The position numbers and the translations under genes were made by a program. A stretch of 20,000 bases of DNA, taken from Reclinomonas americana ATCC 50394 (taxonomy: Eukaryota). The notes under the pieces were generated by a model. The model saw only the letters and a list, made by a program, of their open reading frames with translations. It did not search any database and was not told the origin of the DNA. The stretch lies in NCBI GenBank assembly GCA_048213135.1, contig PS015285.1:56834-76833 (forward strand). The letters are read 5' to 3'. This document shows positions 1 through 20,000 of this stretch, piece after piece (positions within the stretch are counted from its first letter, which is position 1; each line of letters starts with the position of its first letter).

Positions 1-353
1 CCTCCCGGTCTCCGTTCTCCCCTTTCCTCCTTCTCCTCCTCCTCCTTGGGCATCTCCTTGTTCCTCTGCCTTCCTCCTCCACCTGCTCCTTCCCTCTCCT
101 CCTCCTTCTCCCCCTTTCTGTCATCTCTTGCTGTCTAACCCATCTCCTGCTCCCCCTTCTCGTCCTTTCTTCTTCTTCTTCTCCTTCTCCCTTTTTGTTC
201 TGATTCTTTCTCTCGATTAGTCCCTTCCATCTTTCTCTCCTCCTCGCCCTTCTCCTTCCTCCCTCCCTGTTCTCCCGTCTCCCCCTCCCCGCCTTCTCCT
301 CCTTTTCTTCTTCTTCTTCCTCTCCTGCTCACCCTTCTCCCTCTTCTCCCCAG
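1..353 (+). repeat. Polypyrimidine low-complexity tract forming the 3' part of an intron
   Basis: Almost entirely C/T (CCT, TTC, CTCC units). Ends with branch motif CTCAC at 328-332 and acceptor CAG at 351-353. Confidence 0.85.
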
Positions 354-2095
354 TCGCAAAACCGACACCATCACACTGCAAGCATCGTCGAGTGACGTGC
401 GTGGCCGCATCCTCCAATCGATTCGGAGCGCCTGCGCACAGTGCAGTGCGTTTGATGGGGATCCGCGGCACCAGGTCTCACAGTTGACCAGCGAGATGGA
501 TGTTGCGTCGGGGAGGGGGAAGAGGGCCGACGCTCTCCTCGTGTGCCTGACACACCGCGCAGCAAGCACCCAGTGAAGCGTTGCTGCTGAAGCGCGCCAA
601 CTTGCTGCTGGACGCGCAGCAGTACTGGAATGCCAGGTTCTCTCCCCGTTAATTATCGTCATCCACTGTCTCTCATACTCACTTCATCGCCGCCGCAGTC
701 TCGACTTGATCACGCTGGCTCGATCACATCCGGAGAAAACACCAAGCGCACTGATTGAGCGCCGAGCGGTGGCGTTTGCAGCACTGGCGCGTCACCTCGT
801 CGTCTTTGCCAGACGACTCGGATACAGCGGTACGCTGCAGGTGCTCACTCCCTCCGATGCGGAAGACGGACCAGCTGGTAAGTGTGTGCCTCGTCATTCA
901 TGCTGGATTGTTGCGTGTCGTTCTTATGTGCGCTCCTGGTGCAGGTTGGAGTGCCAATGCACTGGGTTAGCGAACCGTTTTGCTTCACATTGTTGTTGTT
1001 TTGCTCAGTCACATGTTCCGCGGCCAGGTGCATTCCATCGGCACGGGTCGGCAGCTCGTTCCGATGCCTCCTGTTGCGTCCCACTTTGAGGATCGCTTCA
1101 TGCGCTCTGCGCTCACTCGCTCGCTCACAACGTCGTGTGTTACACGCAGCTTCGCCCAGGCGTGGTGGACACGAGAGCAGTGGGCGGTCCCTCGTGTCGG
1201 AGGTGTGATTCGTGCGTGCCTTGATGTGTCACACAGCTCTGATTCATCCTTTCCCGGCAGAGTGATGTCGACTCCGTCGCTGACGCGGGTGGCGATGCTC
1301 GTCGGGAGCCTGCCTCCGAGGTCTGCACCACCACTACTTCGCACGTCTCATCCCTCTTTATTCATGTTTCTGTGGCACAGGTCAGCGAGGCGCACATCGG
1401 CCTCCAATTCCTGCTGTACGCCTGGAGCGACGCACTGCTCTACGGAACCAAGCACGACGCTGCTGCGCATGTGAGATATCGCTTCCTTTCCTTCTCGATG
1501 TGCATGTGCGTTACACTCACTCGCCACGCTTGCAGTACGGCACGGTCACCGAGCTGCTTGCGTCGTACCGCGAGTGGATTCATGCGGCCGACGTCGAGTA
1601 CCTGGAAGCGAGGCTGCCGAATGCGCGTCGAGAGCATCCTGTATTTACGCGCATGACCGACGTTTTGCGCGACGCCGAGCGACTGGCGAAGGAGGAGCGG
1701 GTGAATAATAGGATGAGTCGCATCACGGACGAGTATCTGCGCTCATTGCCGGAGGTCGCCGAGAGCATCAGGTTGGTTGGCGAAAGGAATCTGCACGCTG
1801 CATTTCTTATTTCTTCTCCCTTTCCGATATCATCCTCCCTTCTCTGTGTTGTCGCCTTCCCCCTTCGGTCTTCCCCTTCCGTCTCCCCCTTCCGTCTCCC
1901 CCTTCCGTCTTCCCCCTTCGGTCTTCCCCTTCCGTCGTCTCCCCTTCCGTCTTCCTCCCCTCCGTCTTCCCTTCCGTCTTCCATCCTTCCGTCTTCCCCC
2001 TTCCGTCTTCNNNNNNNNNNNNNNNNNNNNNNNNNNNNNNNNNNNNNNNNNNNNNNNNNNNNNNNNNNNNNNNNNNNNNNNNNNNNNNNNCTCTC

Positions 2096-2181
<86 letters not shown>

Positions 2182-5100
2182 CCTCCTCCTCCTCCTCTCC
2201 TCCTCTCCTCCTCCTCCTCCTCCTCCTCCTCCTCCTCCTCCTTCCCCTTCCTTCCCCCTCCCCCCCCCCCTTTCCCTTCACCCACCACCTTCTTCCCCTT
2301 CCTCCTCTCAGGGAAGTCCACCTTCGCAATCACAAGATCGAGGTGCTGCCGAAATCCGGCCTCGAGGTATTCGCCAACGTGCGTGTGCTGGACTTGAGCA
2401 ATAACAAGATCAACGTCCTGCCGTTGCGTGCACTCTTCCTCCTCCCAATCCTCCTTGGTCATTGTCCTTACCTTCATCGGCCGATTGCAGGTGGCGCTGG
2501 TTTTCTGGCTTCCGCTCGCTCAGCCACTTGTATCTGAACAACAACAAGATCCACACGGTGGAGCTGGACGACATTGGACAAGGTGTAGCCCTGTGCCCCT
2601 CGCTGCGGCACTTGGAGATGGTGCGCACCGCTGTGCGCACCCTCGACGACCTGTTCAAGTTGGCACGGTGAGCGTGTGATGGATGATTGCCGAGTGAGTG
2701 AGTGAGTGTGGAGATGTGACTCTTGTCTCTCCTCGCACAGCAATGTGCGAGAACACATTCGAGTGCTTCGATTCAACGGCAACCCGTGCGTCAACTCGTT
2801 GCTGGAGCGCAAGTTGCGTCGTTTGGTTGTTCTCATCGTCGGCATTCGACACTGCGAGTTGACGCGTTTCGCGGCAGTGATCTGCTGCACGTTTCCATCG
2901 AGTACCGTTTCCGAATCATCGACATGTGCACGCAACTGGGCGATCTGGACGGTGTGCTCGTGAATGCCGCCGAGCGCGTGCTGAGCTCGTTGCGGATCTT
3001 GTTTTTTCTTCGTTGTGGAATCCAGAGTCAGCGTCCGACTGTTCTTTCCCGTCCGTGCAGGTGGTTCAAGGATAACAGCATGATGGAGTTGCACACTGCC
3101 TGCTGTCACTGCATGTCTCCCCGTGTGGAGGAGCAAGTGGATGCGCTGAAAATCATTGGGTGTGTTTTTCGTGTGCCTCGCGTCATTATTCCATCGGCAT
3201 CTGATACTGTGCACTGCAGTGGCGCGGGCAACTTCCTCGACACCGCGCAACAGCTGTTCCTCAACGACAACATGGGCATCGTGTCGCGCGCCCTGTCCAT
3301 GCAAAACGCACTCGTTGTCGAGCGTTGTTTGGCGGCCTTGTATCCGCTGCTCACCGAGTTCCAAACTGTTGCGTACGGGTGTGACGCGTGCTCAGTGTTC
3401 ACGCACATCTTATTCGTCTGCTGCACAGGAACCACTCGTGCGTTGCATCTCGATCCAATTCCGAGAGCAGGGCGGTGCCTCGCGCGTACTGCAGTCGCTC
3501 TCGTTTGTCGCCTCGCGAGGTGAGCATGCAAGTGCGACGCATTTTTTCGATGTTGTCACCAACGCGCTCTGCTGGCGTAGCCACCTCCACTCTCGTGCAA
3601 GAGTTCTCCTGGCCGCTGCCGCTGCAGCACCAGGCGCTGCAGGTGCTGTGTGCCCTGGTGTGCGGCGGAAACGAGCGAGACGATTTGTTGGTGTACCGAT
3701 GGAGTGCGTTTGAAAAGGTGCGTATCAGGAGGCCATTGTGCTTCGTGTTCTTCACATTCCGACCCGTGGCATCGTTTGTGCTCTTCTCCCTTGCGCCATG
3801 TTGCATCTTGCCTGTCATCTTCACCATCTCTCTCTCTTCTGTCACCTTCCTGTCTGCCTGTCTTTCTTCTTTGCATTGCCTTTCCCTGCCTTCCCTTATC
3901 TCTTTTCCCCTCTTTCCCCCTCTTTCCCCCTCTTTCCCCCTCTTTCCCTCTGCTTTCCCTCTCTTTTTCCCTCTCTCTTCCCTCTCTCTTTCCCTCTGCT
4001 TTCCCTCTCTTTTCCCCTCTCTTCCCCTCTCTTCCCTCTCTTCCCTCTCTTTCCCTCTGTTTTCCCTGTCTTTCCCCTCTTTCCCTCTCTCTTCCCTCCC
4101 TTCCCTCTCTCTTTCCCTGCCTTTCCCTCTCTCTTTCCCGCTGCCTTCCCCTCTCTCCCCTCTCTTCCTCTCTCTCTTCCTCTCTTTCCTCTCTCTTTCC
4201 TCGCTCTCTCCCTCTCTTCCCTCTTCTCTTCCCCTCTCTTTCCCTCTCTTTCCCTCTCTTTTCCTCTCTCTTTCCCTCTGCTTCCCTCTCCCTCTTTTCC
4301 TCTCCTCCCTCTCATCCCTCTCCTTCTACCTCTGCAGTCGCACGACCCACTCGTGTCGGAGAGTTTCGCCGCGGAGCAAGTGCAGCACCACATCGAACAG
4401 CTGACCTCGACTGGCAATGCCGTCGCCGTCCTGCTGGCACTGATGCAACCATTCTTGCAGCGGCCGATGTCGTCGTTGACACCGTTTCGTATTGCACGCC
4501 AGCCGATCCGCACAGCCCGTTGCACCTGACAACAGTGTTGCCGTCGCAGACATGAGTCCGGAATTCTGTGCAAATGCATGTTCCTCTTCACTGTGATGGT
4601 GTGTGGCCCGCCGGCACCTGCCTCTGCGCAATCGGTGAGTCGCATGTGGTCACACGTACGTTGAAGCCGTCACCTTATGCTCTCACTCACAATTGTCTCC
4701 CACTCGCAGTGCCCTCGTGCCGATCCGCGACTTCTCAGCAAGGAACTCGTCGACGTAATCCTCGCTCTGCTGGCGACGCACTCTGGTTCCACTCTGTGGG
4801 CTCTGTCATTGCTGGTGCGTCTCTCAATTCACCCCTTGTATTTGTTCTGTGCCTCGAGAGTCACCCGTTGCACGCAGATCCTCCTCCGAGTGGATCCAGA
4901 AGAGCATCCACAAGTGATGGTTGGTACTGCTGCTTTCTTTGTTGACCGTTTCGCCAGCTCACACACCGCTCTCTCTCTCGGTGTGCAGAGTGTGCTCTGT
5001 GACATCCGCAGGCTCCGTTTGTTCCTCAATCGTCTGGTCCGAGCGTGCGCAGCGGACTCCCGAGGTACAGTCGGTGTCACCGTCGCTCCCTCCATTCATC

Positions 5101-8100
5101 TGCTCACATGCCTGTAATGCCAGAGCACGAGATCGCCGACCTCATCTGGCTTCTCCTCCTGCGACTCACCAGCGCATTGCCGGAACTCACTGGTCTCCTC
5201 TGTGCGGCTGCCTCGGGTTCCGATAGCATCATTTCGTGTTGTCTCGTCAGCCTCATGGGTCGTCGGTGCGTGTGTATCTGGTTTCCGTTGACTGTCTGCC
5301 TTGGTCACACGCTCACCACAACCTCCATCGCATCAGCGTGCTACAATCGCGGCTCGCTTTTATGTTCCTCTGCAGCAGCTTGGTCAGCGACTCGGAGGCC
5401 TGCCACACGCTCGTGGAGCAGGTCGCGATTCCTTTGCTTGTTGCTAACAAAATAGCCACTTTCTCATTCTCTCTCTCCCGATAACAGCTGACGGCACCGC
5501 AAGCATTGCGCCTCTTTGAGGGCGTGCAGTTTGTTGATGCCACTTTTACACCGGCTGCCGCCAGTCATCTCCTCTGCCAGCAGCATCCGAAATTCCGACC
5601 ATTCCTGCGGTGAGCATGCCCACGTGACGCTTTTATGCTTCCGCCAGTCTCTCATTTTCCCCCCCGTGATCTCGCAGCGCCTTGGACTTTACTCGCCCGC
5701 GATATCCGGACTCGCTGTGCCGCTCAAACGTGTTGCTCCTGGTGGCTCGCACGGTACGCTCTTCGTCTGTCCTTCTGCCTCTCCACGTGCCTCACTCCCG
5801 CCTTTTGTAGTTGCGACGACTTACCGCCGGCACGGTGTCTGCTGCCGCCAATGTCGAGGACGACGCGCAACGAGAACCACTCTTCGACTGTGCGCAGCGA
5901 CTGCTGTCCATGACGTGGCACAACGATATGCAGGATCTGGATGCGTCGGCCATCGAGACCAAGGTCTCTCTCCTCTCATCACACCACTTTTAACGCATTC
6001 GTCTCATCTCTCTACTCTCCTTTCCTTCATTCCCCGTGCGCCAGTGCCTGGCATTCGACATTCTGAGCACGTTTCTGGCCACGGAAGCGTGTGTTCCGAA
6101 GCCTCCGCAGTCGTCCGGGGCAGTGGTGCAGTTGCCGCTTGTGTGCACAACCGAGGACGTAGAGTCGACATTGCGTGGTCGGCAACCGATAGGCACGGCT
6201 CCTGTCGCCTGTTGTTTCCTCCGCCTTTCACTCACTTTTCTCGTCACAGACGCCTTCAAGTGCACTGTGCAGCTGTCGGCCGCCGACGACAATGCGCGAT
6301 CGCTCTCTGGTCCACTGAAGCGCGGCGCGGCGGGTGACGACGACGACGACGACGACGATGGAGTGCCGCGGCTCGTTGTCTCCTTTGTCGCTTCCTCCTC
6401 TGTCTCCCCGCTCGATCGCATGTCGCGAACCGAGTCAGCCGTCTCGCACACGTGCAAGCTCCTCGATGCCATGTTGGTCGACGGTCGCCTGCTGTCGTGG
6501 TTGGTTAAATCCATGCAGAGAGTCGTGTCCCTTAATTTGCAACTCTGACTCGTGTCGGTGTGGCCCAGTATGCATGATGCGTCACAATTGTCGTTGTTGC
6601 TCTCGCTGTGGAACTTTGTCGAGTCGCTGGTGTGGAACTGGCAGTGCTTGAGCGCGCTGCAGTCGCTTGACGCCTCCTTCAATGAGGTGCTCACTGGCGA
6701 CCACGTGGCGTACCTGATGAACAAGTGCGAGCTGGACGACAAGATGCTGCTCTTCTTGCGCGCCCTGTGCACGCAGTTGGAGAGCAGCGCAGCTACTGTC
6801 AGCACACAGACACTGACGCTGCTGCATCGCATCCTCGCCACCGGTGCGTTGGACTGGACTGACTCGCCACCTCCCTCACTCTCATGTCCCTCTGTTGTGC
6901 TCTCCAGTGTTCGCATTTGTCGGCCTTCCCAAGCACTTCTTCGTGTGCAAGTCGATGCCGGTGAGCGGTCCGGTGGATGCGTCGACCATGCGACTGCCGT
7001 CGCTGCCGGACATGTTCATGATGGGCGCTTCGCGTCCACGCCGTCTCGGCGCCACCAACACCATTCCGCGCAGCCTGCGCGAGGTCGCTGTCTCGTTGAC
7101 TCCGGGCATGCGTCTGTTCATCGGCAACACGTTTTGTGTTGCCGGTGCCCTGGTCGACTGCGCTCTGCAGCTCGCCGCACAGACGGAGGTGTCAGCCGCC
7201 GCTCTGGCACGATCCGACGACGCCGCCGGCGCCAATCCGTACGGAATCCTCTCGGCCGCCTTACAGTACTTGCTTGTCGTCTCCAAGGCTGAGCCGAGCG
7301 ACCGCTTCATGTTGGCACTCACCCACCTCCTGCAAGTGCTCACCGACCACGCACGCGTCAGTAACAGCGGTCGTCTGGCCTCGATTGCCAGCTGCCTCAC
7401 GTCGATTCGCGAGGTCCTCAAAGTGCGCCCACATGCGGCCGATTTGCGGTGCGGACACTGCTCTTGTCAGGGCCTGCCTTCTTGTCGCTTTCTTTGCTCA
7501 CTTGCTGTGTGTTGTTGTGCGCCGAAGTCACGTCTGCGTCGATGGACACGTGCTGCAAACGTGTGTGCGCCTCTTGCGCGATCTGTCGCCGCACGTCGAT
7601 GTTCTCAGTCCACAACCGGCGACTGGTGCCGCCGCACCCGATGTGTTGCAGGCGGCGCAGTGTGCGGCCCTGCAGCAGGCACTCGCCACGTGCGCCGTCG
7701 GCTGTATTTTCACTCTGTGTACTCGAACGGCCGCACACGGCTCTACTGCCTCGCTGCCGACACTTGATGTGATGCACGAGCTGCAGCAAACGGCCACTGC
7801 CAACACACAACAACTGCTGGTGTGCCTCACGCCCGATCTGCTTGCGCACCTGCTGACGGCGCCTGCGGAGCTCTTGCAGGAGGTGCGTAATCTGGGTGAT
7901 CGCGGTTGCACACACAGTGACAGAACTCTCACCGCATCACAGGGTGAGCACGCCGTGCTTGTGGCCGAATGCGCGGAGCATGTGCTGGCAGACGAGACTC
8001 CTGCCTCGAGCACTGGTGCCGCTGGCGGCGAGAGCGCTTTGGTTGGCGGATCGGCACGCAACGGGAGACTCAGTCTGTGGCTGTTGGACGCACTCGGCGA

Positions 8101-11100
8101 AGGTGTCGAGAGCACAGAGATGCAGCTGCGAGCACGAGAAGCACTGCTGTACGTGCTGTCATCAGCTCGCCGTGCGCAGGTCCCGCTTCTCCGTCAGCTG
8201 GAGAAGAGCTGTGTGGCGGACGAGGCAAACCGGCGGTTCCTGGTCGAACTGGGTGCCCCTCTGCTGAGTGCGCTCATAGCGGTCGCAGCTCGTGTCGTGG
8301 TGGAGCGCGATTTGCAGCTTCCGCCTGCCGACTTTGCGGCGGTGGTTCGCAGCAGCGAGGCCGCCTTGCGCCTGCTGCATGCGCTTCTGAGTGGCTTGCA
8401 ACCGTTTGCCGCCTCCATCAACTCTGCATCAGTGGTGGGCTTGCCCCCGTCGCGCCGCTTTGCCTGTTGATACTCATTGAATGTGTCTGCGTATGCAGCG
8501 ACTGCGCACACGCTCTGGACTCGACCTGGACACTCGCACGCAACACTTGCTGGCCGAAGTGCCCGATTTTTTCCAAATCGTCGAGTCCACGCTCGACGCC
8601 ATCCTCCATGACGAGGTGTCGATGATTGTCGCCGGTGCCGACGGCGCCGATGCACTGCTTCAAGGCACGTGTGTGTTTTTTCTTGGTTGTTGTTGAATGT
8701 TTGGTGGGTGCATATTCACATTCGACGACAGAGACGTTTCTCGAAGCCCTCTTGGATGTGCTTCATGACGTGCGACCGGAGCAGCTGGCGCAGCACTCGG
8801 GCGCAACGCTCCACCGCCTCTGGCAGCTGCTGCTGGTGCGATTTGGCTCGCCAGCGCTTCGCTCGGTTTGTGTGTCTGTGTACGGATGGGTACGAGTCGT
8901 TGCCGCTGCTCGTCTCATGAATTGTGTGCAGAGTCCGGCAACGTACCTGACGCTGCGCATCTTGACCCGTGCCGCCGTGCTGGTTGATGTGACGGAGGAC
9001 ATTGTGCGGTCGACAAGCGCAGAGAGCTTGTTGTCGCTCCTGCGCTGGTGCGTGGCGTGCTCCGCGGAGCGCAGTTGCGTTGTTCTCTATCCTTGCAATT
9101 CCTCCCTTGCCCGCTTCGTTCTCACCTTTCCCCACGGCCACCGCAGACTCGGCGCCAGCGGCCGCCGCGTTGCATCACTGTTTCCGTCTGCTGGCGTCGC
9201 TGGTCTCTGGCATGCGTGTCGAGTACCTGCTGCCCAGTGCGGAACACGTGGTGTCGGCCGTGTCGGCGTGCGTGCAGACAGTGTTGAGTGCGCCGCCGCC
9301 GCCGACTGCCGCCGACCGCCGCGACCACGAAGAGGCGCTGGATGCAGTCATGGAGTTTCTGGCATCGCTTCTCCGCTCACACGACTACTTCAAGGCTCGC
9401 TTCGCCACCGAGCAGATGGTGGGCACTCTGGTCCAGCACGTACTGGCCGGCGACGACAGTGGGCGACTGCTGTCGCCGACCAAGCCCGACACGGCCGCGA
9501 AAACTCTCTCTGTGCGTCAGGAATGCCTGTGCCTGTCGGTACTGGCCGAGTTGTGCAAGGGCAGCACGCCGTGCTGCGGTGCTCTGCTCGCCTCGGCAGC
9601 GGGCGACAGCCTGTTCCTGGCAGCAGGTTTTTTTGTTGTTTGGTGGTCACGACTCTCTCCTTCTTGCGCTTACTCGCCCTCTCTCTCTCTCGCAGAGCGA
9701 ATGGTGGTCTATCTCGCCAAGCAGGTGGTTCGCGGCAATGTCGCGGTCAGCACCGCGGCTGCCAGCGTCATTTCTGCCCTTGTAGCCACCGTGCCGCTGC
9801 GTGATGCATCGCTCCCGGTGCCTGCGTCGCTGCGTGCCGAGCGACAGCAAGCATCCGCTCAGTCAGCGCGTTCCTGGACAAACACCGCCACCACTACCGC
9901 CACCGAGCAGCCACTCCTTTCGCCAACGACACCAGTGACGGCGACCACCAAGAGCACGGTGCAAACCCTGCTGGAGCGCGCCCTGGACGCCACCGTGGCT
10001 GAGTCTGCCAATCCCGACACACCCATCTCGGGCACCGCCGCGGCCACCGTGGCCTCCCTACTGGGGCAGGCCATTGAGGTTATGGCGCAATCGCCGACCA
10101 CTGCAGCAGCACCACCTGCTGTCTCGGTGGCCGCAGAGCCGGCGTCATCGTCATCGTCGTCTTCGTCGCACAACACTCATCGGCCGCAACCTGTGCTTGT
10201 GAATACTGGCGCGGATGCACTTGCCAGCTCACTTGACGTGCCGCCGACGCCTCGCACGCCCTCCATGTCCGCGCTCGACAATATGCCGCCTCCGGTGTTT
10301 GCCGGCCTCATTGTTACCTGTCTACATGAGGTGCGGGCACTGAAAGAGCTTTTTCATTCCCTCCCTCCCTCTCTCACGCACGCGTGGTGCAGACACATTT
10401 CATGCGCACGGTGATGGAGGACAGTCGACCATCGTCGGTATACTCTCATGCGCGGACACTGGCCGTTGACATTGCGAATGGGCACGAGTTGCTGGCCGAC
10501 GATTTGTTGAATGTGTGCTCCCGCCTGTGCCACGAGTACGTGCAGACAGCGTCCGTCATCACCGGCAGCGGTGGCAGTGCCGCGGCTGCGTCTGCCAGCG
10601 ACAGCGACAGCGACAGCGCGCCGTCCACCAACGCTGTGTGGCAGTATGCTTCACATACACGCGCCATGTCGAATCTGCTCGAGCTGGTGGCCTTGTTGCG
10701 TGGGGGTTGCACGTCGAGCATTTGGCACACGCTTATGCACTGTTTGACCATGCACCAGGTGCTCGGAGAAGCTGGTCGCCGGCTACTTGCCGGCCATCCA
10801 GCAGACCGCCAGCCAAGTGCGTTGGTGCGCACTGCTGCAGGCCACCTCGCGCGAAATGTCGGGTGGTATGCACTGCTTGCTTGCTTGCCTCGTGTGTGCC
10901 ACGCAATCTCACTCCGATGACAACGAACAAGATCTGGTTTCGACCAGCCTGCTATTCCGCAGAATCGCCGACTGCCTTGCGCGTCAGTTGCGAAGCGAAG
11001 ATTTGCGTGGCAGGCTCGCCACTCTGGAGTCCCGAGCGGCGGAAGCCGGGCAAGCCAATGTGTTTTGTGCGGTGAATACTTGAATTCGAGTGTCTTTGCT

Positions 11101-14100
11101 GCTGCACGTTGCGCAGCTGCTTACCAAGATTCTTGTATCAACGCAGCTGTGGGACTTGCTCGAGGATGTGGATCACTTGTTGCAGGTGGATTCCACGGGG
11201 TCGATGGCCGTGGAGATCTCGTGGGATGCCGTGGTGGCCGACGCTGCTGCGTTGCTGCGAGACTACGTCTGCGCGCTGTCTGCAGTCGCTGCCGCGAGTG
11301 TGAGCAGCTTGAGCAAGCGGCGATCTGCCGCGCAGTGGCTCACGCACCTACCGTGGTGGTCTCTGCCCGTGCATATTGATCAGTTGTTCGTGCAGTCGAC
11401 GGCGGCGGCTCCACGAGGCGCGCTGGTGAGAGTGTCTGGTGACGTCGATCTGCTCGCCGTGGCCTTGTTGCTCACTTGCTGGCGGGTGCAGGAGGTGATG
11501 CGTCTCGTGGAAGAAGTGCTACGTAGGCCTGCTGTACTGCGTCTGACGGCGGCGGAGGCCCCGCGTGTGTTTGCCGCTGGCCTCCGTCAGTTACTGGACC
11601 ACTTTGTCGTGCAGCAAGTTGCGTGGGAATGGTGTTGTGTGCTGATCCAAATCATGGACTGGTTGGCATGACTCGTCACTGTGTGCAAACGGCAGCACTC
11701 GGACGCCTCGTGTGTGAAGCAAACGTGGTGCTGTGCTCTGGTCACATTCGAGCGATTGCGCGAGAGCGGCGCCGATGGGTGCGTGATGATGCTGCCTTGC
11801 TCACTGATCCCCATTTTTTCAATTAAGTGTGCTTGTGTCTCAGTTTGCTGTGGGCCGAGAGCATCACCTACGCCGAGCTATTCAGTGCACTGCGCGACTC
11901 GTCCATGAGCTCCGAAGTCGACGTGGCCACCGTCGGCAAGCTGGCCACCATAAAGATGCAAGCGGTGTGTCGGGGCGGGGCTCGCGCTCCTCCAACGCGC
12001 TCTCGCACACTCACCGCGTTTGTGGTGATACAGATGCCGCTCTCAGAGGGAGTTGCCGACGTGTTGGCACCTTTGCTGGACATGGCTGGCCGGCTGCTTG
12101 CCGAACCGACGTACGACTCCTGGTTATCGGCGGCGACTGTGCTGCAGCAGGTGTGTGTGAAGGGGTGTCTTTCTGTTGACCGATTCGCTGATAGCTGTGT
12201 GCCTCTTGCAATGCAGCAGCTCTCCACTGCATCGCTGCAAGGCGCCTGCGTGGCGCTGCTCAAGACCGAAGTGGCGCAATCGCTCTCCAAGTTGGTGGTT
12301 ACCTGCGTGCAATATGTGTTTGACCCGCAGTCGCCACAGCGCGCGCCCCACGAATGGTTCTTACCGTGTTGCAGTGATGTGGTTGGTGCTGAGACTCACT
12401 GCTTTTTGCATGGCGCAGGGATGTACTGGCCTCGCGGTGTGCCATGGTGGTGGGAGCAATCGTCGATGCTGCTCGCGAGAGTCGTGCCGAGGTGTGAAAA
12501 TCAAGCAAGCATCGGTGTCTTCTGTTTTTTTCTGTGCGTGCTAACCACCGTACCCAGCTGCTGGAAGCACTGCTGTCGGGCGTCGTCCACGGCTGTTCGT
12601 ATCCGCGCTCCGACGTGTGCATGCAATTCCTGCGCCTCGTCTCTCGACTCGTTCGAGAAGCTTGTTGCGTGTGTGCGACAACGTACTCCGTTCCCCTGCC
12701 GCCGCTGGTGTTGAAAAGAAATGTGTGCTCTCCCCGTCGCAGCACCGGACATGGTGGCTGCCATTGTCGTCGAGCACCAGCTCCCACTGTTATTGCTGCG
12801 TTCGATAGACACGGTGCCGCGGTCGCAGCAAGCCGCCTACGCTCAGGTGGCACTCGGCGTCCTCTGTGCGCTGGCCGATGTGGCCGCATCCAATGGTTTG
12901 CGTGCGCGCGCCACCGCTAGACAGTTGCATTGTCCTCATGCAGTGGCGTGCGCAGGCCTGCAATTGCTCCCAACAGGCACGTTGCCACTCACCGTGTCAG
13001 CATGGGAGGGACCCGGCAGCATGACCTCCGTGACGGCTTCAGTGCGATCCGCCAGTTGCATCCTGAATTCTTCTGCACACCGCCTCCTTGCCATTCCGCT
13101 CAATCATTATGTTGCCGCTCCTCAAAATGCAGTGTCCTCTCTCCGCGTGTGCTTTGATCCGGCTGCCATGGGAGACGACGTTGCAGAACTTGCTACGGCC
13201 CTGGTGGACAAGCTGGTCACTTTCCCGTGGGGATTTTCAGCTCTCTTCTCCGGCAACGGCATCCCAGCCATCATGGTTTGTGTCGCTTTTTTTGTTATTT
13301 GCGTTGTCTGTGCTTGACAACGCACGGCTGACATGCATCGATATCAGGTGTCGACAATTCTCCCGGCCAGTGGAGTCGCCGACAGCAGCAATGCGCATCG
13401 CGCACACGCGCTGTCGTCTCGTCAAGCGCGCGTACTTTCGCTGCTGGACAAGTGCCTGGCCTCCATTGCCAGTCGACAGGTTGACTGGGCGCGCACCAGC
13501 GAGGCAAGCAGCGAGGCTGCCGACATTGTGCAGTCATTCACCACCGACTGCAGTGCCATCGAGGTTCGCACCGTCCTGTTCTTGCTGACCTTGCCGTGCG
13601 GAATTCATCGAGTGTTTAGGTGGCCAAGTTGATTCGCGTGGTGGACGTGTCCGGTCGCTCGGCCGACCAGGCTGCTCTGCAGGCGTTGCGCATTCTGCAC
13701 GCCATTGGCCAGCTGAGCGGCAATGCAGCGCAAGCAAACATGAGCCTCCTCGAGTCGTCGACGTGGGGCGAGTGGATGCGTGACGTGCAGTGGCTCCGTG
13801 GGTCGGTGCCGGCCGGCATTCCTGCGCACCTCTTTGGTATCCTTGGCAACACGGTGGCGGCCGGTGACGTGCGCCAAAAGACCTCCGAGGGTGTCATGGC
13901 TGGCCTCCGAGGTGCGTTTGGCGTGTCAGCAAGTCGTCGTTGATGTGTGTGTGTGTGTGTGCCAATCCTCGTTTCCGATACTTGCAGGAGCTGTTGCCTT
14001 GTGGTCGGTGTTAGGCGTGGCGGTGAGTAGTGCTGCATTCATTATCGATGTGCAATTGCTTGACTGCTCACGTTACGACGACCATTCACACAGAATGGTG

Positions 14101-17100
14101 GTGGGGACGTGCCGTCGCCGCAGCATGTATCGGAGACCCGTCGTGCCATTCTCAATTTCCTGCGACGGCTGTGCGATGACAAGCTGCCGCGCGTCGCGAG
14201 TGCATTCGCCGAGTCGCGAGTGCCATCGGCGCTGCTGCCGTTCCTGGAACATGCACCACTTGGTTTGTGCTCTCTCTCTCTCTCTCTCTCTCAGTTTTTC
14301 GAGCTCATGCCGGTGGCTGCTCATCACCTTTTGTGGCAGACTCGCCGACACACAGGGAGACGCTGTCGATATTCATCGAGTTGTTCGAGCACATGGCACC
14401 GGGTACATTCTTGAGTGGCGACACGAAGCGCGAGGCCTACGACATCATGTCGCGGTTTGTTATGGCGCAACGTGTCAGCGTGTGTGTTTTTCCTGACTCG
14501 TCGCGCGCAGGTGCATGTCGCAGCGCGAGTACCCACCCGAGCCGTACATTCGACTGATGACGTGCTGCTGTGAGCTCACCGACAATGTCACGGGCGTCTT
14601 GCGTGAGCCACTGGTGGTTGACCGTCTGTGTGGCGCCGTGAATCCGCGCACGCATCTGCAAGCGTCCATGCGAGTCGTGGAAATGTTCATTCAGTGCTGG
14701 AAAGAGGCCGCGGTGACATCGCTGTTTGTGGAGAGCGGCATTGTGCAGGTGTGGTTCTGTGTATACTCCCACTGACACTTGTTTTGCTCACGCACTGTGT
14801 GCGCCGCCACAGGGCGCCATTTCTTGCTTGTCGGAGTTGGCGTCGCGCGACTTTTCCAGCCGACCAAGCACCGTGCGGTGTCTGGAGGCACTGGAGCTGG
14901 TGCGCCCCATGCGTGTTGTAGATTTGTGCCGTCCTGCGTGGCTCATTTTTGTGCAGGCAATCCGACTGGCGCCAGAGGCAGCACAGTCAGCCGTCCTCAA
15001 CCAGTTTTGTTGGCATCGTGACGAGTTATATATCGTTTCTAAGCTTCGCTCATTACTTCTGTCGTCTTTCGTAGGACTCCGCTGCTGCTGCGATGCATTC
15101 TCCATGAAGTGACTGGAAAATCGGCCGACTACGCCGTGCCGCCCACCGCCATCAGCTCCACAGCGCTGCAGGCGTTGCATAGTGCGCAGGAAGTGTCGGT
15201 GCGCAGTTCAGATACAGTTGCCGCCGCCGCCATGCGCCGCTTCCAGGCCCCGCGTACAATTGCCGAGGCATTGCTGCTACTGGCCGAGTGCACCTCGCGA
15301 CAGTCGTTCATTCCGCTCTCCGAGTCGCGCAACCGCTGGCTGCAGCAGCTGCTCGGAATACTCGCGCATTCGTGTCGGTGAGTGCAACTCACATCTCTCG
15401 CCTCTTTTTCTCTCTCTTTCTGTGGCTCGCACTCCAACAGTGCTGCACAGGCGTCATGAATTGCTGCCGCCCATGACCACCGACGAGATGAATCTCGTCA
15501 GCCGTGCAGTGCTGGCTCTGTTGCGTCTGGCACTCGTGCCGTCACTGCATCTCGCCGCCGAGTCCGTCGCTGCGACATGCCGCCTTGTGCGCGAGATTGG
15601 CGTGCTGGTGGGTTGTGTCGTGCATGCACACCAGGTAGTCAATGGATGCTGACTGCTTGTGTTTGGTTTAGGCGTGCGGTCCCGCCGAGGAGTACGTCAG
15701 TGTGCTGACACAGCTGGCGGAGCAAAAGAGTCACGCCAAGCTGCCAGCCATGCGACTGCTGACTGCGTACTTGTCGGACTCGAAGCTGCGCAGCGTCTTC
15801 CTGGCTGGCGGCGGACTCGCCACGGTGCTGACCGACATGGCGACTGAGGACGAAGAGATCTCCGTGGTGGCCACCGAGGTGCGCTGGCGAGGAGGAGGAA
15901 AAGGGGGGAGAACGCGATTTGAATTGTTGCTAACGCTTGATGCAATGATGCAGCTGATGGACATGGTCACTGTGGCTGGCGCGAGGGATGCGCAGATTGC
16001 CAGCCACTTGATGTCCATTGTGCACACGCACACACCGCATTTGGATGCCGGCGACTCCATGGCAGTGTCCGAGAGGAAGATCAGCAGTGCGCTCGTGTCT
16101 CTGCGGTTTGTTTTTGGTCACACTGCGCGCTCCTCTTGTGACTTCCTCACCAACGTGGCAAACCAGGAATCTCGTGTCGCGTCTCGGGGGCGACATGTTG
16201 TCCGCTCTCAAACCCACCGATGTCGATGTGTTGCGACGATTGGCCGTGTCGCACGGCCTTCCGACTACCCCCGCACTGCAGGCGTCTGCTCTGCAGCTCC
16301 TCGTCACCATGCTCGGCACGCTGTCGGGCACCGATCCGTTGTTGGCCTCGGTGCACTCGATCTCCGCCGGCCAGGTTCGGCGACCGCAAACACTAACTGT
16401 GAATGTGTATGTGGTGGACGATAGCTGATCTCTGTGTGCAGGACCTGGTGCTGTCGCTCGATCACCTGCTCAAGGAACTGCGCGCCGATGCGCCATCTCA
16501 AGTCATTGACGCGGCGTGCCTGCACATGGAGGTTCTTTCATTTGCATGTTCCTCTCCGCAGCTGTCTCCATGGTGTCACATGTGTCGTCTCTCTCGCAGC
16601 TGCTGCAAGCGACTGTGCGTGCGCGTGGCGTGGCCACCATTCCTCTGTCGTCGGCGCTCTCCGTGTTGTGGCACACGGCGAGTCGGGCGTATGTGGTGGT
16701 GGAGAAGTCGGCCAATCGGCGCTCGCCCATTGAGCAGCTTCGCGCCACGCTGCTCACATTCGCCGCGGTGGTGGATTCGGTGAGGGGGAGAAGGGGGGAG
16801 AGAGAGAGAAAGGGAGAAGGAAAAGAGAGGAGGGAGTGATAGGAAGGGTGGGAAAGGGTGCTGGTAAGATTGACAAGCGTAGCAAGAATTGGATGCAGTG
16901 TCTTGATTAGTAAGTTTGAGAGATCGGCAAGCGGTGGAGGAGTACGAGCAAGTCAGTAGTAGTTGGAGGGAATGGGATGACAAGCATGTGGGCGGGCAGT
17001 GTGGAAGGAACAGAGATCGAGAAGATTAGCAAGAACTGGATGCAGTGTCTTGATTAGGAGATAGGTTTGAGAGATCGGCAAGCGGCGGAAGGGGAAGGAG

Positions 17101-19941
17101 CGGAAAACAAGAAGGAGAATGAGTACCGGAGGAGTTGGAGGCTTACAATATCTGTGAGATGGAGTGTGAGCGATTAATTGGCAGAAGAGAGAGATGATGA
17201 GAAGATCTGCATGCATACGGGGAGAAGCTTTATCACGGGTTATTGTGGGCGGTCATTAACTCATCCAGTGCTGCGATGAAACACGCAGGCGGTGGACGAG
17301 GCTGAGATTTCTGGTGACATGGTGTCTGCACTGAGTTCCGCCACTGGAGTGCGGGATCATTTGCAAAACTGTGAGTCTGGCTTTTTTCTTGCGCACCTTT
17401 TGCTGAATACTCACGTTTCCCCTCTGCATATGCAGACATTGCTTCGATGCTCCGTCTCTGCTTGGCGCGCAGTCCATTCTTGCGCACCTCGGATGGTGAG
17501 TTGACTGTCTCCTTGCTGTGATGCACCTCCCCCTTATTTGGTGGAACAGCGTTGGAGGAGTCACAGCGCATGTCGCTTCGTGCTTCGTCGTTTGCCGGTC
17601 TGCGCGCATTGTTGACGTTGCAGGCGTTTGAGGTTGCGTCGCGGCACCCTGTCTTGTCTTGCTCTCGCTGGCCTCTGATTGCAACGCAGCGTCTGGTGTT
17701 GGACTCGACCATGCGCGTCGTTCGAGACGAGGGTGTGGTCGACAGTGTCACCGGTCAGGTGCGCGACATACTGGCACACACCTCCGCAGTGCGACCGACC
17801 GGTGTGACTGGCGGTGCGTCATGCTTCTCACTTTGAGCAACACACACGTGAGCTGCTTACGCGCGTGTGCGTGCGCTGCAGAGTTTGTTGCCGGTGGCCT
17901 CGATTTGCTCGCCGAGATCCTCCGTCTCAGTGACGAGCCGGCGGCGAACGCTGCCGCGGTTCACGGGGAGCTGGTGGCGCAGACGGTGCGATTGCTTTCG
18001 CACGATCCGAACACCGCCGCTGACGACGGAGTGGTGGGAGCGGCGGCCAAGATGTGTCGCACATGGATCGAGCTGCGGGTAGTGCCCATGTTGGGCGCAT
18101 TCGCCGACACGATGGTGGCCACATTGGCGGTGCGTGTGTGTGTGCTGGGTGCAGAGACAAAAAATACTGCTTTGTTCACACCTTGTCGCAATGCAGCATC
18201 TGGCGCGTATGCAAAGGAACCACCAGGGTGCGAAAGACATGGCGTTGTTGCTGGTCGCCTTGCATCGAGCGGACAGCAAGCGGTTCAACGAGGCTCTCGC
18301 CCAGCAGCAGTTGGTACCGCTGGAGACGGCGGCACGGATTGTGTTGCGCGCTGTTCAACTGGCTGCTTCCTTCCCGCCCGCTGTCGCTCTCCCGTGCATG
18401 CAGATGCTGGCCGGTGAGTGTGCGTGTTCAGCAGTCCATGTGAGGTTTTGCCTTGCCCACCGCTGGCACGTTTTTTTCCTTCATTCAGGTCTGGCGCTGG
18501 ACTCGCCCATCGCGGTGTTCTTGTGCGCGCCGGGCAGTGTGGTGGCGGTGGCCACATCACTGCGCCAGTTCACCGCGCGCAATGTGACCAAGGCGCGCGC
18601 TCGCGATTCGATCGATCTCAGTGGCCAGCAGCAGCTGTCGGTGGCGGCGCAATGGTTCGTGTGTATGCTTCGTTAAATGTGCTGAGAGTGGTGCGTGTAT
18701 CTCACCCGCCTATGCCTCAGCGCCCTGGCCATGTGCGCCGCTCTCCGCTTGCTGACCTCGGCCGATAGTCACGCGATTCACGCCGCGCTGACTGAGGCGG
18801 CGACAGATCGACGACCAGTATCACGATTGGCGCCCGGCAAGAGGTAAAGCGGCCGCCCCACTGCCTATGCGCACTCACAGCGTTCTTCTCACGATGCGCG
18901 AGTGAGCAGCACACGCACTCTGGCCGAGGTGCTGGTCGGTCTGATCATGGAAACGCATTTTATCGGCGTGCGGCAGCCTTCGCAACCACAACAAGTGGGT
19001 CAGCCGGATCCTGTCGACGCCATTTGTCTGCTGGGGCGAGTGTACGGAGCACTGCAGGTGTCGTCGCATGTGCGAGCTGTGGAGGATGTGCACCGCACGG
19101 TGCAGCCGGTGATCATGGCGCTGCTTGGATTGCTGGCCTCGCCGCGGCCCGATGTGTGCTACTGGAGGTGGGATGGGGGAAGGGGAAGAAGGAGGGAAAG
19201 AGAAGGGGAGAGGTGGAAGAGGGAAAGGGCTTTAGGGAGGGAGGAAGCGATTCGAGACTGCAGCTGGGAATAGGAAGGGAGAAAAGGGAGGGACAGATGA
19301 GGAGAGAGAGAGAATGTGAGGAAGACAGGCGACAGAGAAAGGGTTTTCCGCACCACATCGGCTGTTCTCAACAACAACGACTTGCTTTCGCAGCGCGTAC
19401 GTCTTGCGCTGCTCGACGGAAGACTCGCAGATTGCAGAGCAACTGCGCGCCGCCGGTGCCGCCGCAGTCATCACCGACTTGATCGGACGAGACCGCACGA
19501 ACGCCGCGCAGCAGCTGATGGTCGAGATCCTCATGCAAATTGGTGAGTGTGGTGGTGCTTGCCGCCGCTTCGTGTTGGGAATTCCGACGAGAGATGCGCA
19601 GGTGTGGAGGATACGGCCAGCTCTGTCGTGTCGTCGTACTCGGCCGCCTCATCGACCGCCACCAGTCCACGTGCGCGACAATTGCAGGACGCCGGCAAAC
19701 GCGCAGCTGAACTGGAGATGTCCATGGCGGAGGCGTTGCAGGCGCATGCACAGCAGATTCGTGAATTGCAGCGCGAGCTGGAACGCGTGCGAAGCGAGTT
19801 GGTGCAGTCGGAGCAGATGCGCTCGGAAAATATGAGAGTTACGTATTCGCCCTGCATGCGCTTGTTGTTCTTCTTCGCCATGACCACTCTTCTCACGTGT
19901 ACCTGCTTGACGACCACCGCGACACACAGAGGGCGGAAAAG
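354..19941 (+). CDS. Single very large multi-exon gene (~80 introns), truncated at both window edges. Predicted LRR + ARM/HEAT-like solenoid + coiled-coil protein of roughly 4,000+ aa within the window; function unknown
   Basis: Consecutive GT..AG introns with CTCAC/CTGAC/CTAAC branch motifs join exons into one open frame with consistent phases. First exons: 354-501, 563-636, 699-877, 945-965, 1028-1072, 1150-1202, 1261-1320, 1381-1470, 1536-1771, 2312-2422, 2491-2667, 2741-2812, 2878-2988. Last exons: 19394-19542, 19602-19837, 19930-19941. I found no in-frame stop that splicing could not remove and no intergenic spacer. Some individual boundaries are ambiguous. Confidence 0.85.
1761..2988 (+). 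CDS. Leucine-rich repeat block (~5 LRRs) ending in an LRRcap motif (U2A'/ANP32/SDS22-like), spread over 5 exons
   Basis: Spliced translation: ESIREVHLRNHKIEVLPKSGLEVFANVRVLDLSNNKINVLPWRWFSGFRSLSHLYLNNNKIHTVELDDIGQGVALCPSLRHLEMVRTAVRTLDDLFKLARNVREHIRVLRFNGNPCVNSLLERNDLLHVSIEYRFRIIDMCTQLGDLDGVLVNAAER. It contains LxxLxLxxNxI repeats, a terminal GNP, and a YRxxIIxxxxxLxxLDG...ER cap. Confidence 0.85.
1858..2310 (+). repeat. Intronic compound repeat: ~13-nt CCCCTTCCGTCT(T/C) minisatellite, then (CT)n and (CCT)n microsatellites
   Basis: Directly visible inside intron 1772-2311. Minisatellite about 1858-2010, (CT)n about 2091-2177, (CCT)n about 2178-2242. Confidence 0.9.
2011..2090. other. Assembly gap (80 N)
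   Basis: Run of N between the minisatellite and the (CT)n tract. The flanking exons join in frame (ag+g = Arg in ESIR-EVHL). Confidence 0.98.
3061..19542 (+). CDS. Long alpha-helical solenoid region with ARM/HEAT-like repeats (part of the same gene)
   Basis: Recurrent amphipathic, ARM-like segments: MSPRVEEQVDALKIIG...LFLNDNMGIVSRALSMQNALVVERCLAALYPLL (~3110-3360); AAVTSLFVESGIVQGAISCL (~14710-14830); AMRLLTAYLSDSKLRSVFLAGGGLATVLTDMATEDEEISVVATELM (~15750-15960); ALLGLLASPRPDVCYWSAYVLRCSTEDSQIAEQLRAAGAAAVITDLI (~19120-19485). Judged by eye, no profile search run. Confidence 0.55.
3880..4328 (+). repeat. Intronic degenerate ~10-nt polypyrimidine satellite (TTCCCTCTCT-like)
   Basis: Many imperfect TTTCCCTCTC/TTCCCCTCT units inside the 620-nt intron 3718-4337. 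Confidence 0.9.
6335..6359 (+). repeat. Coding (GAC)n trinucleotide repeat encoding poly-Asp
   Basis: ggt gac gac gac gac gac gac gac gat gga = GDDDDDDDDG, in the frame of the exon. Confidence 0.8.
8665..8731 (+). other. Probable GC-AG intron (67 nt)
   Basis: A phase-1 donor is needed to reach ETFLEALLDVL. AAG|GCACGT fits. The next phase-1 GT (T|GTGTGT) would create TAG, and a later G|GTTGTT at 8686 gives an unusually short 46-nt intron. Confidence 0.6.
13945..13961 (+). repeat. Intronic (GT)n microsatellite
   Basis: gtgtgtgtgtgtgtgtg within the intron starting at 13912. Confidence 0.85.
14270..14293 (+). repeat. Intronic (CT)n microsatellite
   Basis: ctctctctctctctctctctctc within the intron starting at 14263. 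Confidence 0.85.
16780..17288 (+). other. 509-nt purine-rich intron containing an imperfect direct repeat
   Basis: Donor G|GTGAGG at 16780 and acceptor CAG ending 17288 join ...AVVDS-AVDEAEI... in frame. Sequence is G/A-rich and lower in GC than the exons. Repeat copies at about 16880-16940 and 17027-17092. Confidence 0.8.
19168..19393 (+). repeat. 226-nt intron filled with polypurine (GA-rich) low-complexity sequence
   Basis: Donor AG|GTGGGA and acceptor CAG join DVCYW-S-AYVLR in frame. About 19170-19343 is almost all G/A. Confidence 0.8.
19682..19941 (+). CDS. Coiled-coil segment continuing beyond the window
   Basis: LQDAGKRAAELEMSMAEALQAHAQQIRELQRELERVRSELVQSEQMRSENMR, then the 12-nt exon RAEK. 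E/Q/R-rich, heptad-spaced hydrophobic residues, no prolines. Confidence 0.7.
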
Positions 19942-20000
19942 GTCTTGTGTTGTTTTGCGTCGTGAGAATCTCACCGCCACGCCCTGTGCGCTGACTTGTG

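Follow-up and report, generated by a model that had tools for sequence, protein, structure and literature searches.

How are the introns of a very intron-dense gene recognised if their 5' splice sites do not all follow one motif? This question is raised by a stretch of DNA from Reclinomonas americana ATCC 50394 (contig PS015285.1, positions 56,834 to 76,833 of the forward strand), which we analysed over its whole length of 20 kb and call the window. The window has a G+C content of 59% and is filled by one protein-coding gene on the + strand (352..19944), which probably extends past both window ends and in which our three gene models place about 76-81 introns, most of them 55-80 nucleotides (nt) long. 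A sequence-only reading of the window had pointed to a group of introns that start with GTT, mostly GTTGCGT, and had proposed that such donors serve exons with a last base other than G and are possibly recognised in a shifted register. Our analysis suggests that the organism has a real second 5' splice-site motif, GTTGCGT with its variants GTTTCGT, GTTGCAT and GTTTTGT, which is present at about 12-14 of the roughly 80 introns, and that it may be recognised as the same heptamer that underlies the main donor class. We give this reading a probability of roughly 0.6. Deduced from the sequence and standing behind it are the sites themselves, their consistency with the reading frame, the loss of the preference for a G as last exon base (position -1) and an intron consensus displaced by one base.

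A second donor motif in one gene

Introns were placed by models that differ in what they know about donors. The motif-blind model is a Viterbi gene structure that knows only the GT of the donor and combines it with codon usage, an intron-length prior and an acceptor matrix, the latter first trained on introns with classical G/GTRMG donors (a slash marks the exon-intron boundary). The intron-only mixture model scores donors from intron positions +3..+8 alone, and the third parse is called the full model; in addition, a canonical-only model scores donors by the canonical matrix alone. Two further set-ups were discarded: a donor-blind parse without acceptor matrix was too imprecise, and expectation-maximisation that combined a lenient intron penalty with a full donor matrix cut the gene too finely, into 98 introns. 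In all three models the introns end in YAG, usually with a branch-like motif YTNAY before it. All junctions follow from frame, codon usage, acceptor motif and intron length. In sequence as G+C-rich as this, the coding strand cannot be distinguished by codon usage alone. We call the second donor class, GTTGCGT and its variants, class B; a set of 13 such sites was used for the comparisons of register, energy and intron properties.

The heptamer GTTGCGT is found 12 times on the + strand and three times on the - strand, where 4.74 copies (standard deviation 2.18) are expected on both strands together, and a total of 15 was reached in 0 of 200 shuffles. GGTGCGT, the corresponding heptamer of the main class, is enriched strand-specifically to the same degree (11 copies on the + and one on the - strand). 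The gene span offers 1431 GT dinucleotides, of which the motif-blind model picks 79 as donors. GTTGCGT is the most enriched 7-mer among them, with eight of its 12 copies chosen (hypergeometric p=2.5e-8). An unsupervised two-component mixture, applied to positions +3..+8 of the same donors, resolves them into a GTGNGT and a GTTGCGT type. According to the full model ten of the 12 copies serve as donors, with one of the others located in an intron and one in an exon. A similar usage is seen for G/GTGCGT, with nine donors among 11 copies if 18130 is counted, which is near-tied with the model's choice at 18136. By comparison, H/GTGCGT is present in 15 copies on the + strand, of which at most one is a donor and ten lie inside modelled exons. 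It is thus the G two bases before TGCGT that accompanies use, whether the base in the middle is G or T, as expected if the recognised unit is G-K-TGCGT.

All 16 positions quoted in the sequence-only reading match the quoted sequence and -1 base, and a G at +6 followed by a T at +7 is indeed found in 11 of its 13 GTT sites without a -1 G (the exceptions being 2989 and 13055). Eight of these 13 are recovered by the motif-blind model (502, 2423, 2813, 3368, 9074, 11618, 13055 and 15004), ten by the intron-only mixture model, which adds 1073 and 12664, and 11 by the full model, which adds 4484; 2989 and 19838 are recovered by no model. The motif-blind model was built to avoid the concern voiced with that reading, that sight of the motif had sometimes steered the choice of donors. 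All three models also find three further listed donors, 17633, 1471 and 17371.

In the motif-blind model the penalty for forbidding a single class-B site is 1.8-12.1 units, and between -57 and +45 nt there is no other in-phase GT for 2423, 9074, 13055 and 17633. In-phase rivals of 502, 2813, 3368, 10695 and 15004 score 2-11 units lower, and a G precedes just one of these rivals, that of 502 at 475. If class-B introns were retained, nine of 13 would shift the frame and two more would carry an in-frame stop. All modelled class-B introns are of the GT..AG type and keep the frame on removal, and their phases are mixed. Judged from these data, the GTTGCGT class is likely to be real.

The two donor classes differ in the last base of the exon. 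In the motif-blind parse a -1 G is present in 29 of 38 donors with a G at +5 and in one of ten GTTNHG donors (Fisher p=2.3e-4); in the intron-only mixture parse the proportions are 36/45 and 1/11 (Fisher p=2.3e-5). Within the window, the association of a non-G at -1 with a GTT-type intron start, as put forward earlier, is supported. Counted over classes, 40 of 50 main-class donors and one of 13 class-B sites have the -1 G; this one is 17633, in agreement with the earlier remark that only one GTTGCG donor follows a G. A third donor flavour combines the -1 G with a weak intron side, for example cag/GTTCTCTC, aag/GTCTCTCT and cag/GTTTTTTT. Among the full model's main-class donors, position +3 holds 32 G, 13 T, 4 C and 1 A, and position +4 shows no bias towards A (T 15, C 15, A 11, G 9), a pattern unusual for standard U1 or U6 pairing.

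The individual sites

The best supported class-B intron is gcc/GTTGCGTG (2423..2490, 68 nt), which is chosen by all three models. The exons on its two sides match the Pfam leucine-rich repeat (LRR) family LRR_8 at profile positions 6-40 and 19-57, and these alignments stay in register across the junction 2423/2490, modulo the 24-residue repeat. The continuity of the repeat register therefore gives independent support for the exact junction. Very well supported is also gca/GTTGCGTT (9074..9146, 73 nt), for which forbidding the donor costs 12.1 units in the motif-blind and 8.8 in the canonical-only model. A canonical-looking donor, ctg/GTGCGTGG at 9048 (9048-9054), is located in the exon 26 nt upstream of 9074 and is out of phase. 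Joined to the acceptor at 9146 it would create a TGA at the junction and a wrong downstream frame; it thus seems to be ignored or unproductively spliced.

All three models likewise agree on gat/GTTGCGTC (502..562, 61 nt, not a multiple of three), where the only in-phase rival, cag/GTCTCACA at 475, is 7.0 units worse and the canonical-only model puts an intron 541-592 in its place. They agree on act/GTTGCGTA (3368..3428, 61 nt; forbidding it costs 6.0 units in the motif-blind and 5.8 in the canonical-only model) and on caa/GTTGCGTG (11618..11695, 78 nt), which would carry an in-frame stop if retained and is substituted in the canonical-only model by two introns flanking a 17-nt exon. One class-B intron chosen by all three models is new, since it was absent from the earlier list: ctt/GTTGCGTG (10695..10758, 64 nt, not a multiple of three; donor also given as ctt/GTTGCGTGG). 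Two variants belong to the same group. The intron cca/GTTGCATC (13055..13132, 78 nt) would cause neither frameshift nor stop on retention, so that its support comes from the signals and the coding score (forbidding it costs 10.1 units), and the rivals of cca/GTTTTGTT (15004..15074, 71 nt) are 2.1-4.2 units worse.

The intron caa/GTTGCGTC (2813..2877, 65 nt) is again found by all three models, and its in-phase rival ccc/GTGCGTCA at 2786, which also lacks the -1 G, is 8.9 units worse. With the donor at 2786 the spacing from NP to YR in an LRR-cap-like stretch would be eight residues instead of 17. The shorter spacing is nearer to that usual in such caps.

Other sites are less secure. Both ctt/GTTGCGTG (12664..12742, 79 nt) and cct/GTTGCGTC (1073..1149, 77 nt) are found by the mixture and full models; the former is near-tied (+0.1) with the in-phase rival tgt/GTGCGACA at 12673, and near-equal parses close to the latter include cag/GTGCATTC at 1028. 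The variant acc/GTTTCGTA (4484..4549, 66 nt) is chosen by the full model only. If retained it would carry an in-frame stop, and with this intron the frame stays open through 4338-4919. For the intron at 2989..3060 the donor is ambiguous: ctc/GTTGCGGA at 2989 and ctt/GTTTTTTC at 3001 are in phase, 12 nt apart and tied at 0.0, the models chose 3001, and both are GTT after a non-G. A further candidate variant, aga/GTTACGTA (19838..19931), is picked by no model, and the window end is too close downstream.

Three further donors complete the list. The intron gag/GTTGCGTC (17633..17689, 57 nt) has a GTTGCGT donor after a G and would be in frame and stop-free if retained. Donors of the normal register that lack the -1 G are cat/GTGAGATA (1471..1535; no in-phase rival) and act/GTGAGTCT (17371..17435), both found by all three models.

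At some donors the models appear to slip by a few bases. In the region 15374-15450 they choose cgt/GTCGGTGA at 15374 with the acceptor at 15440; the classical donor tcg/GTGAGTGC at 15378, joined to the following AG (15450), gives the same frame and looks likelier. Similar slips of 6 nt are seen at 18130/18136 and 18414/18420, and likewise at 10313/10331.

Register of recognition and alternative explanations

When the 13 class-B sites are scored with the main-class matrix, the summed log-odds rise from -59.4 in the normal register to +31.9 when the sites are read one base further on. In the simplest account, the splicing machinery would recognise a single heptamer, G-K-UGCGU. In the main class, G/GUGCGU, the cleaved GU would be bases 2-3 of the heptamer, and its first G would be the last exon base. 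In class B, /GUUGCGU, the cleaved GU would be bases 1-2, so that the intron would contain the whole heptamer, leaving the exon's final base free. Early recognition by the U1 small nuclear RNA (snRNA), perhaps with U1-C or other proteins, would then bind shifted by +1, and the GU would be chosen at the later catalytic step. Cleavage one base later (HG/TT..), against which the earlier reading had cited the reading frame, is not distinguishable by frame; we rejected it solely on the prior expectation of a G as the first intron base.

Apart from the donor, class-B introns appear to be ordinary short GT-AG introns with a 3' architecture like that of the main class. Acceptor scores are 5.46 in class B and 5.38 in the main class (p=0.98), and the branch-like motif YTBAY is found in 77% and 80% of the introns, respectively. 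Their lengths (57-79 nt, with a median of 66 elsewhere) do not differ from those of the main class. Local alignment of the intron bodies in the window gave a mean score of 7.35 (maximum 13) for the 78 pairs within class B, compared to 7.71 for the 624 pairs between the classes.

The standard U1 5' end is ACUUACCU. Counted by hand, it forms four Watson-Crick pairs and one wobble pair with GTTGCGT in the shifted register, and two and one in the normal register. Duplex energies with this textbook end (PMC4856993) were calculated by nearest neighbours, a crude estimate that includes neither pseudouridine nor proteins, and average -6.4 kcal/mol for G/GTGCGT donors.

A number of observations weigh against our reading. 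Every junction was deduced from sequence, and the sample is one gene in 20 kb. The motif-blind model scores 1697 on the reverse strand, with 72 'introns', compared to 1707 on the forward strand; by itself the codon model thus has little power, and it is the enrichment of the motif on the + strand that carries the argument. The strands do differ in their donors, since in this reverse-strand control the 72 donors picked contain no 7-mer more than twice and show an even -1 base. The canonical-only matrix re-parses seven of 15 candidates (502, 1073, 2989, 4484, 11618, 12664 and 19838), the region 878-1380 has several near-equal parses, and 2813 has the in-phase rival at 2786. A G precedes 21% of all GT in the gene, and the 1/13 in class B is not a significant depletion (p=0.20), which indicates a class without preference for G rather than one that avoids it. 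The idea that such donors go with exons lacking a final G is supported as far as the missing exonic G preference is concerned (1/10 versus 29/38) and goes too far in implying that G is depleted below background.

Further points concern the register itself. The mean U1 energy of GTTGCGT donors, -0.9 kcal/mol, is weaker than the -2.2 kcal/mol of unused exonic H/GTGCGT, and with such a weak helix pairing to the textbook U1 alone does not explain donor usage. Class B has ten GTTGCG and no GTTGAG, whereas the main class has ten G/GTGCG and seven G/GTGAG, so that the C at +5 is stricter in class B than a pure one-base shift would predict. The signal expected in the exon is weak, with an A at -1 in 5/13 (p=0.04) and a C at -2 in 7/13 (p=0.04); the main class of this gene has almost no preference at -2/-3. 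The proposed +1 register is thus borne out by the intron positions, which fit one base later, and runs into difficulty with the U1 energy, the strict +5 C and the exon signal. Because of these three points we do not accept a plain U1 shift, and a shifted U1 register as the mechanism is a tentative proposal, which we hold at somewhat less than even odds. A variant U1, or recognition chiefly through U6 or through proteins, may apply instead. The wider proposition, that a fixed heptamer G-K-UGCGU is cut at its first GU and that about one intron in six throughout the genome is recognised either with a +1 shift or by a variant U1-like RNA, seems rather unlikely to us.

Among the other explanations, a variant snRNA would dispense with the shift: a second U1, or a U1 with an altered 5' end, would pair directly with GUUGCGU in its own normal register. 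This would account for the lack of a stable helix between GTTGCGT and the textbook U1 5' end and for the nearly fixed C at +5, which behaves as if it were paired; the main class, in which +3 is almost never A and +4 is not biased towards A, is unusual for standard U1 as well. Class B is the minority, however, and a single altered U1 would suit the majority class worse. The strong conservation of the U1 5' end across eukaryotes also counts against this explanation, which we regard as unlikely.

The sites could instead be defined from the intron side, with a strong intron motif read by the ACAGA box of U6, the U at +3 bulged and no special shift of U1. H/GTGCGT should then pair with U6 better than GTTGCGT does, but at most one of its 15 copies is used, and to our knowledge a bulge in the U6 helix beside the catalytic centre is not established. 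Intron-strong donors of the normal register without a -1 G are rare (1471 and 17371). What speaks for U6 is a general pattern: as far as the available parts of PMC9803359 and PMC11732430 describe it, 5' splice sites fall into two major classes, defined on the exon side (U5) or on the intron side (U6), and the two are anticorrelated. The same anticorrelation between the -1 G and the intron side is seen in our gene, and so is the opposite extreme, the exon-side AG/GT with a weak intron side. In contrast to that pattern, the intron-side class is here displaced by one base (+5 C, +6 G, +7 T) and is not //GURAG. Altogether we consider this explanation improbable.

Misplacement of the introns would make a class of its own unnecessary. 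In that case other donors would be used, and GTTGCGT would be enriched near exon ends through codon context or as an intronic enhancer. A codon model that does not separate the strands, the alternative canonical-only parses for seven of 15 sites and the ambiguous region 878-1380 speak for this. Against it, a model that does not know the motif still chooses eight of the 12 copies, four sites have no other in-phase GT, and the replacements for forbidden sites are mostly non-canonical and likewise without a -1 G. Moreover, the LRR register is continuous at 2423/2490, and splicing from 9048, the closest perfect canonical site, would put a stop codon across the join. We consider such an artefact very unlikely.

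Extremely unlikely is a diverged minor-spliceosome (U12-like) class or an introner family with GTTGCGT at its 5' end: a long, nearly invariant 5' motif without exon requirement is indeed the style of U12 donors, but GTTGCGT does not resemble what we take to be the U12-type consensus, branch-like motif, acceptor score and length are the same as in the main class, without a separate branch motif or 3' architecture, and the bodies of the 13 class-B introns of the window are no more alike than other pairs.

The gene product and comparison with known systems

The N-terminus of the product consists of leucine-rich repeats, with Pfam LRR_8 matches on two exons, and is followed by a long Ala/Leu-rich sequence that resembles helical repeats. 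No Pfam family was found for eight long exons, and the ESM Atlas returned vague helical-repeat look-alikes and nothing more. A HMMER scan of 1.84 billion representative proteins found a single real relative, which is 57% identical over the exon 6907-7446; it is an unnamed open reading frame of 217 amino acids on a contig of 1386 nt, and a distant relative. Two other proteins from the same scan were rejected as weak repeat-protein matches. Word-index protein searches found no relatives for exon 6907-7446 (among longer proteins) or for exon 10393-10692. Two candidates for related DNA proved spurious, one a weak match with 31% GC and the other from a bacterial metagenome-assembled genome. Rfam gave no match in the window at the gathering score.

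Besides the short introns, the gene contains long ones that are low-complexity tracts, two of them CT-rich (1772-2311 and 3718-4337) and two GA-rich (16781-17288 and 19168-19393). An N gap (2011-2090) is located inside the first of them, and parts of the GA-rich introns were wrongly modelled as exons. In the GA-rich intron 16781-17288, direct duplicates of about 65 nt can be seen by eye at about 16880-16940 and 17028-17092 (…agcaagaa.tggatgcagtgtcttgattag…gtttgagagatcggcaagcgg…).

Donors similar to those of the main class are known from green algae. According to the accessible parts of PMC2483917 and PMC3879977, the canonical donors of Mamiellophyceae are AG/GTGCGT(G), and they have both G/GTGCGT and a CTGAC-like branch motif in common with our gene. 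There, canonical introns are few per gene, and the dense short introns are AT-rich (<43% GC) and have no clear signals (PMC2483917, PMC3879977), whereas here the short introns have a G+C content of 54% and about 80 of them are located in one gene. In the same parts of these two papers a GTTGCGT class is not described for Mamiellophyceae. A full-text literature search for GTTGCGT/GUUGCG returned primers and unrelated RNAs and no printed donor class, although a paper specific to a species may have been missed by it.

The closest known counterpart is human. Sites recognised by U1 in a +1 shifted register have been experimentally proven in human cells, as have bulged U1 registers (PMC4856993, its reference 10, Figure 1B; source available in part). 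There, too, the GU is cut at +1/+2, the rest matches the consensus one base later, and cleavage is uncoupled from the U1 register. In the part of that source consulted, all validated non-canonical registers together make up 1.5% of 201,541 human sites (PMC4856993); the shifted sites are rare there, while here they would account for about 15% of the introns of one gene, with nearly one fixed heptamer. A second difference is the very weak helix predicted here with the textbook U1.

Another human register, with a bulge at +2/+3, is predicted for 54-68 sites only (PMC4856993, Figure 1C and Table 3, as far as available). H/GU-U-GCGU could be drawn in this way, with +1/+2 paired, one U bulged and +4..+7 moved by one. 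Since C9 of U1 would be free, such a bulge predicts a -1 G, which is present in 1/13 class-B sites compared to 40/50 in the main class.

Donors in a non-canonical register are thus already known, and what is notable here is their frequency. If the wider, genome-wide proposition is true, a mechanism so far known only from rare human sites would be in routine, high-frequency use. If the class holds across the genome and in RNA, it would also reveal why an unbroken helix counts for less than a G two bases ahead of UGCGU, and the uncoupling of U1 recognition from the later choice of the bond by U6, U5 and Prp8 would become testable. There would be a practical consequence for annotation as well, in that gene finders trained on one donor matrix alone would put about 15% of this genome's donors in the wrong place; here the canonical-only matrix re-parsed seven of 15 candidates. 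Under the same condition, this organism would be a natural system whose non-canonical 5' splice-site register is common and not an exception.

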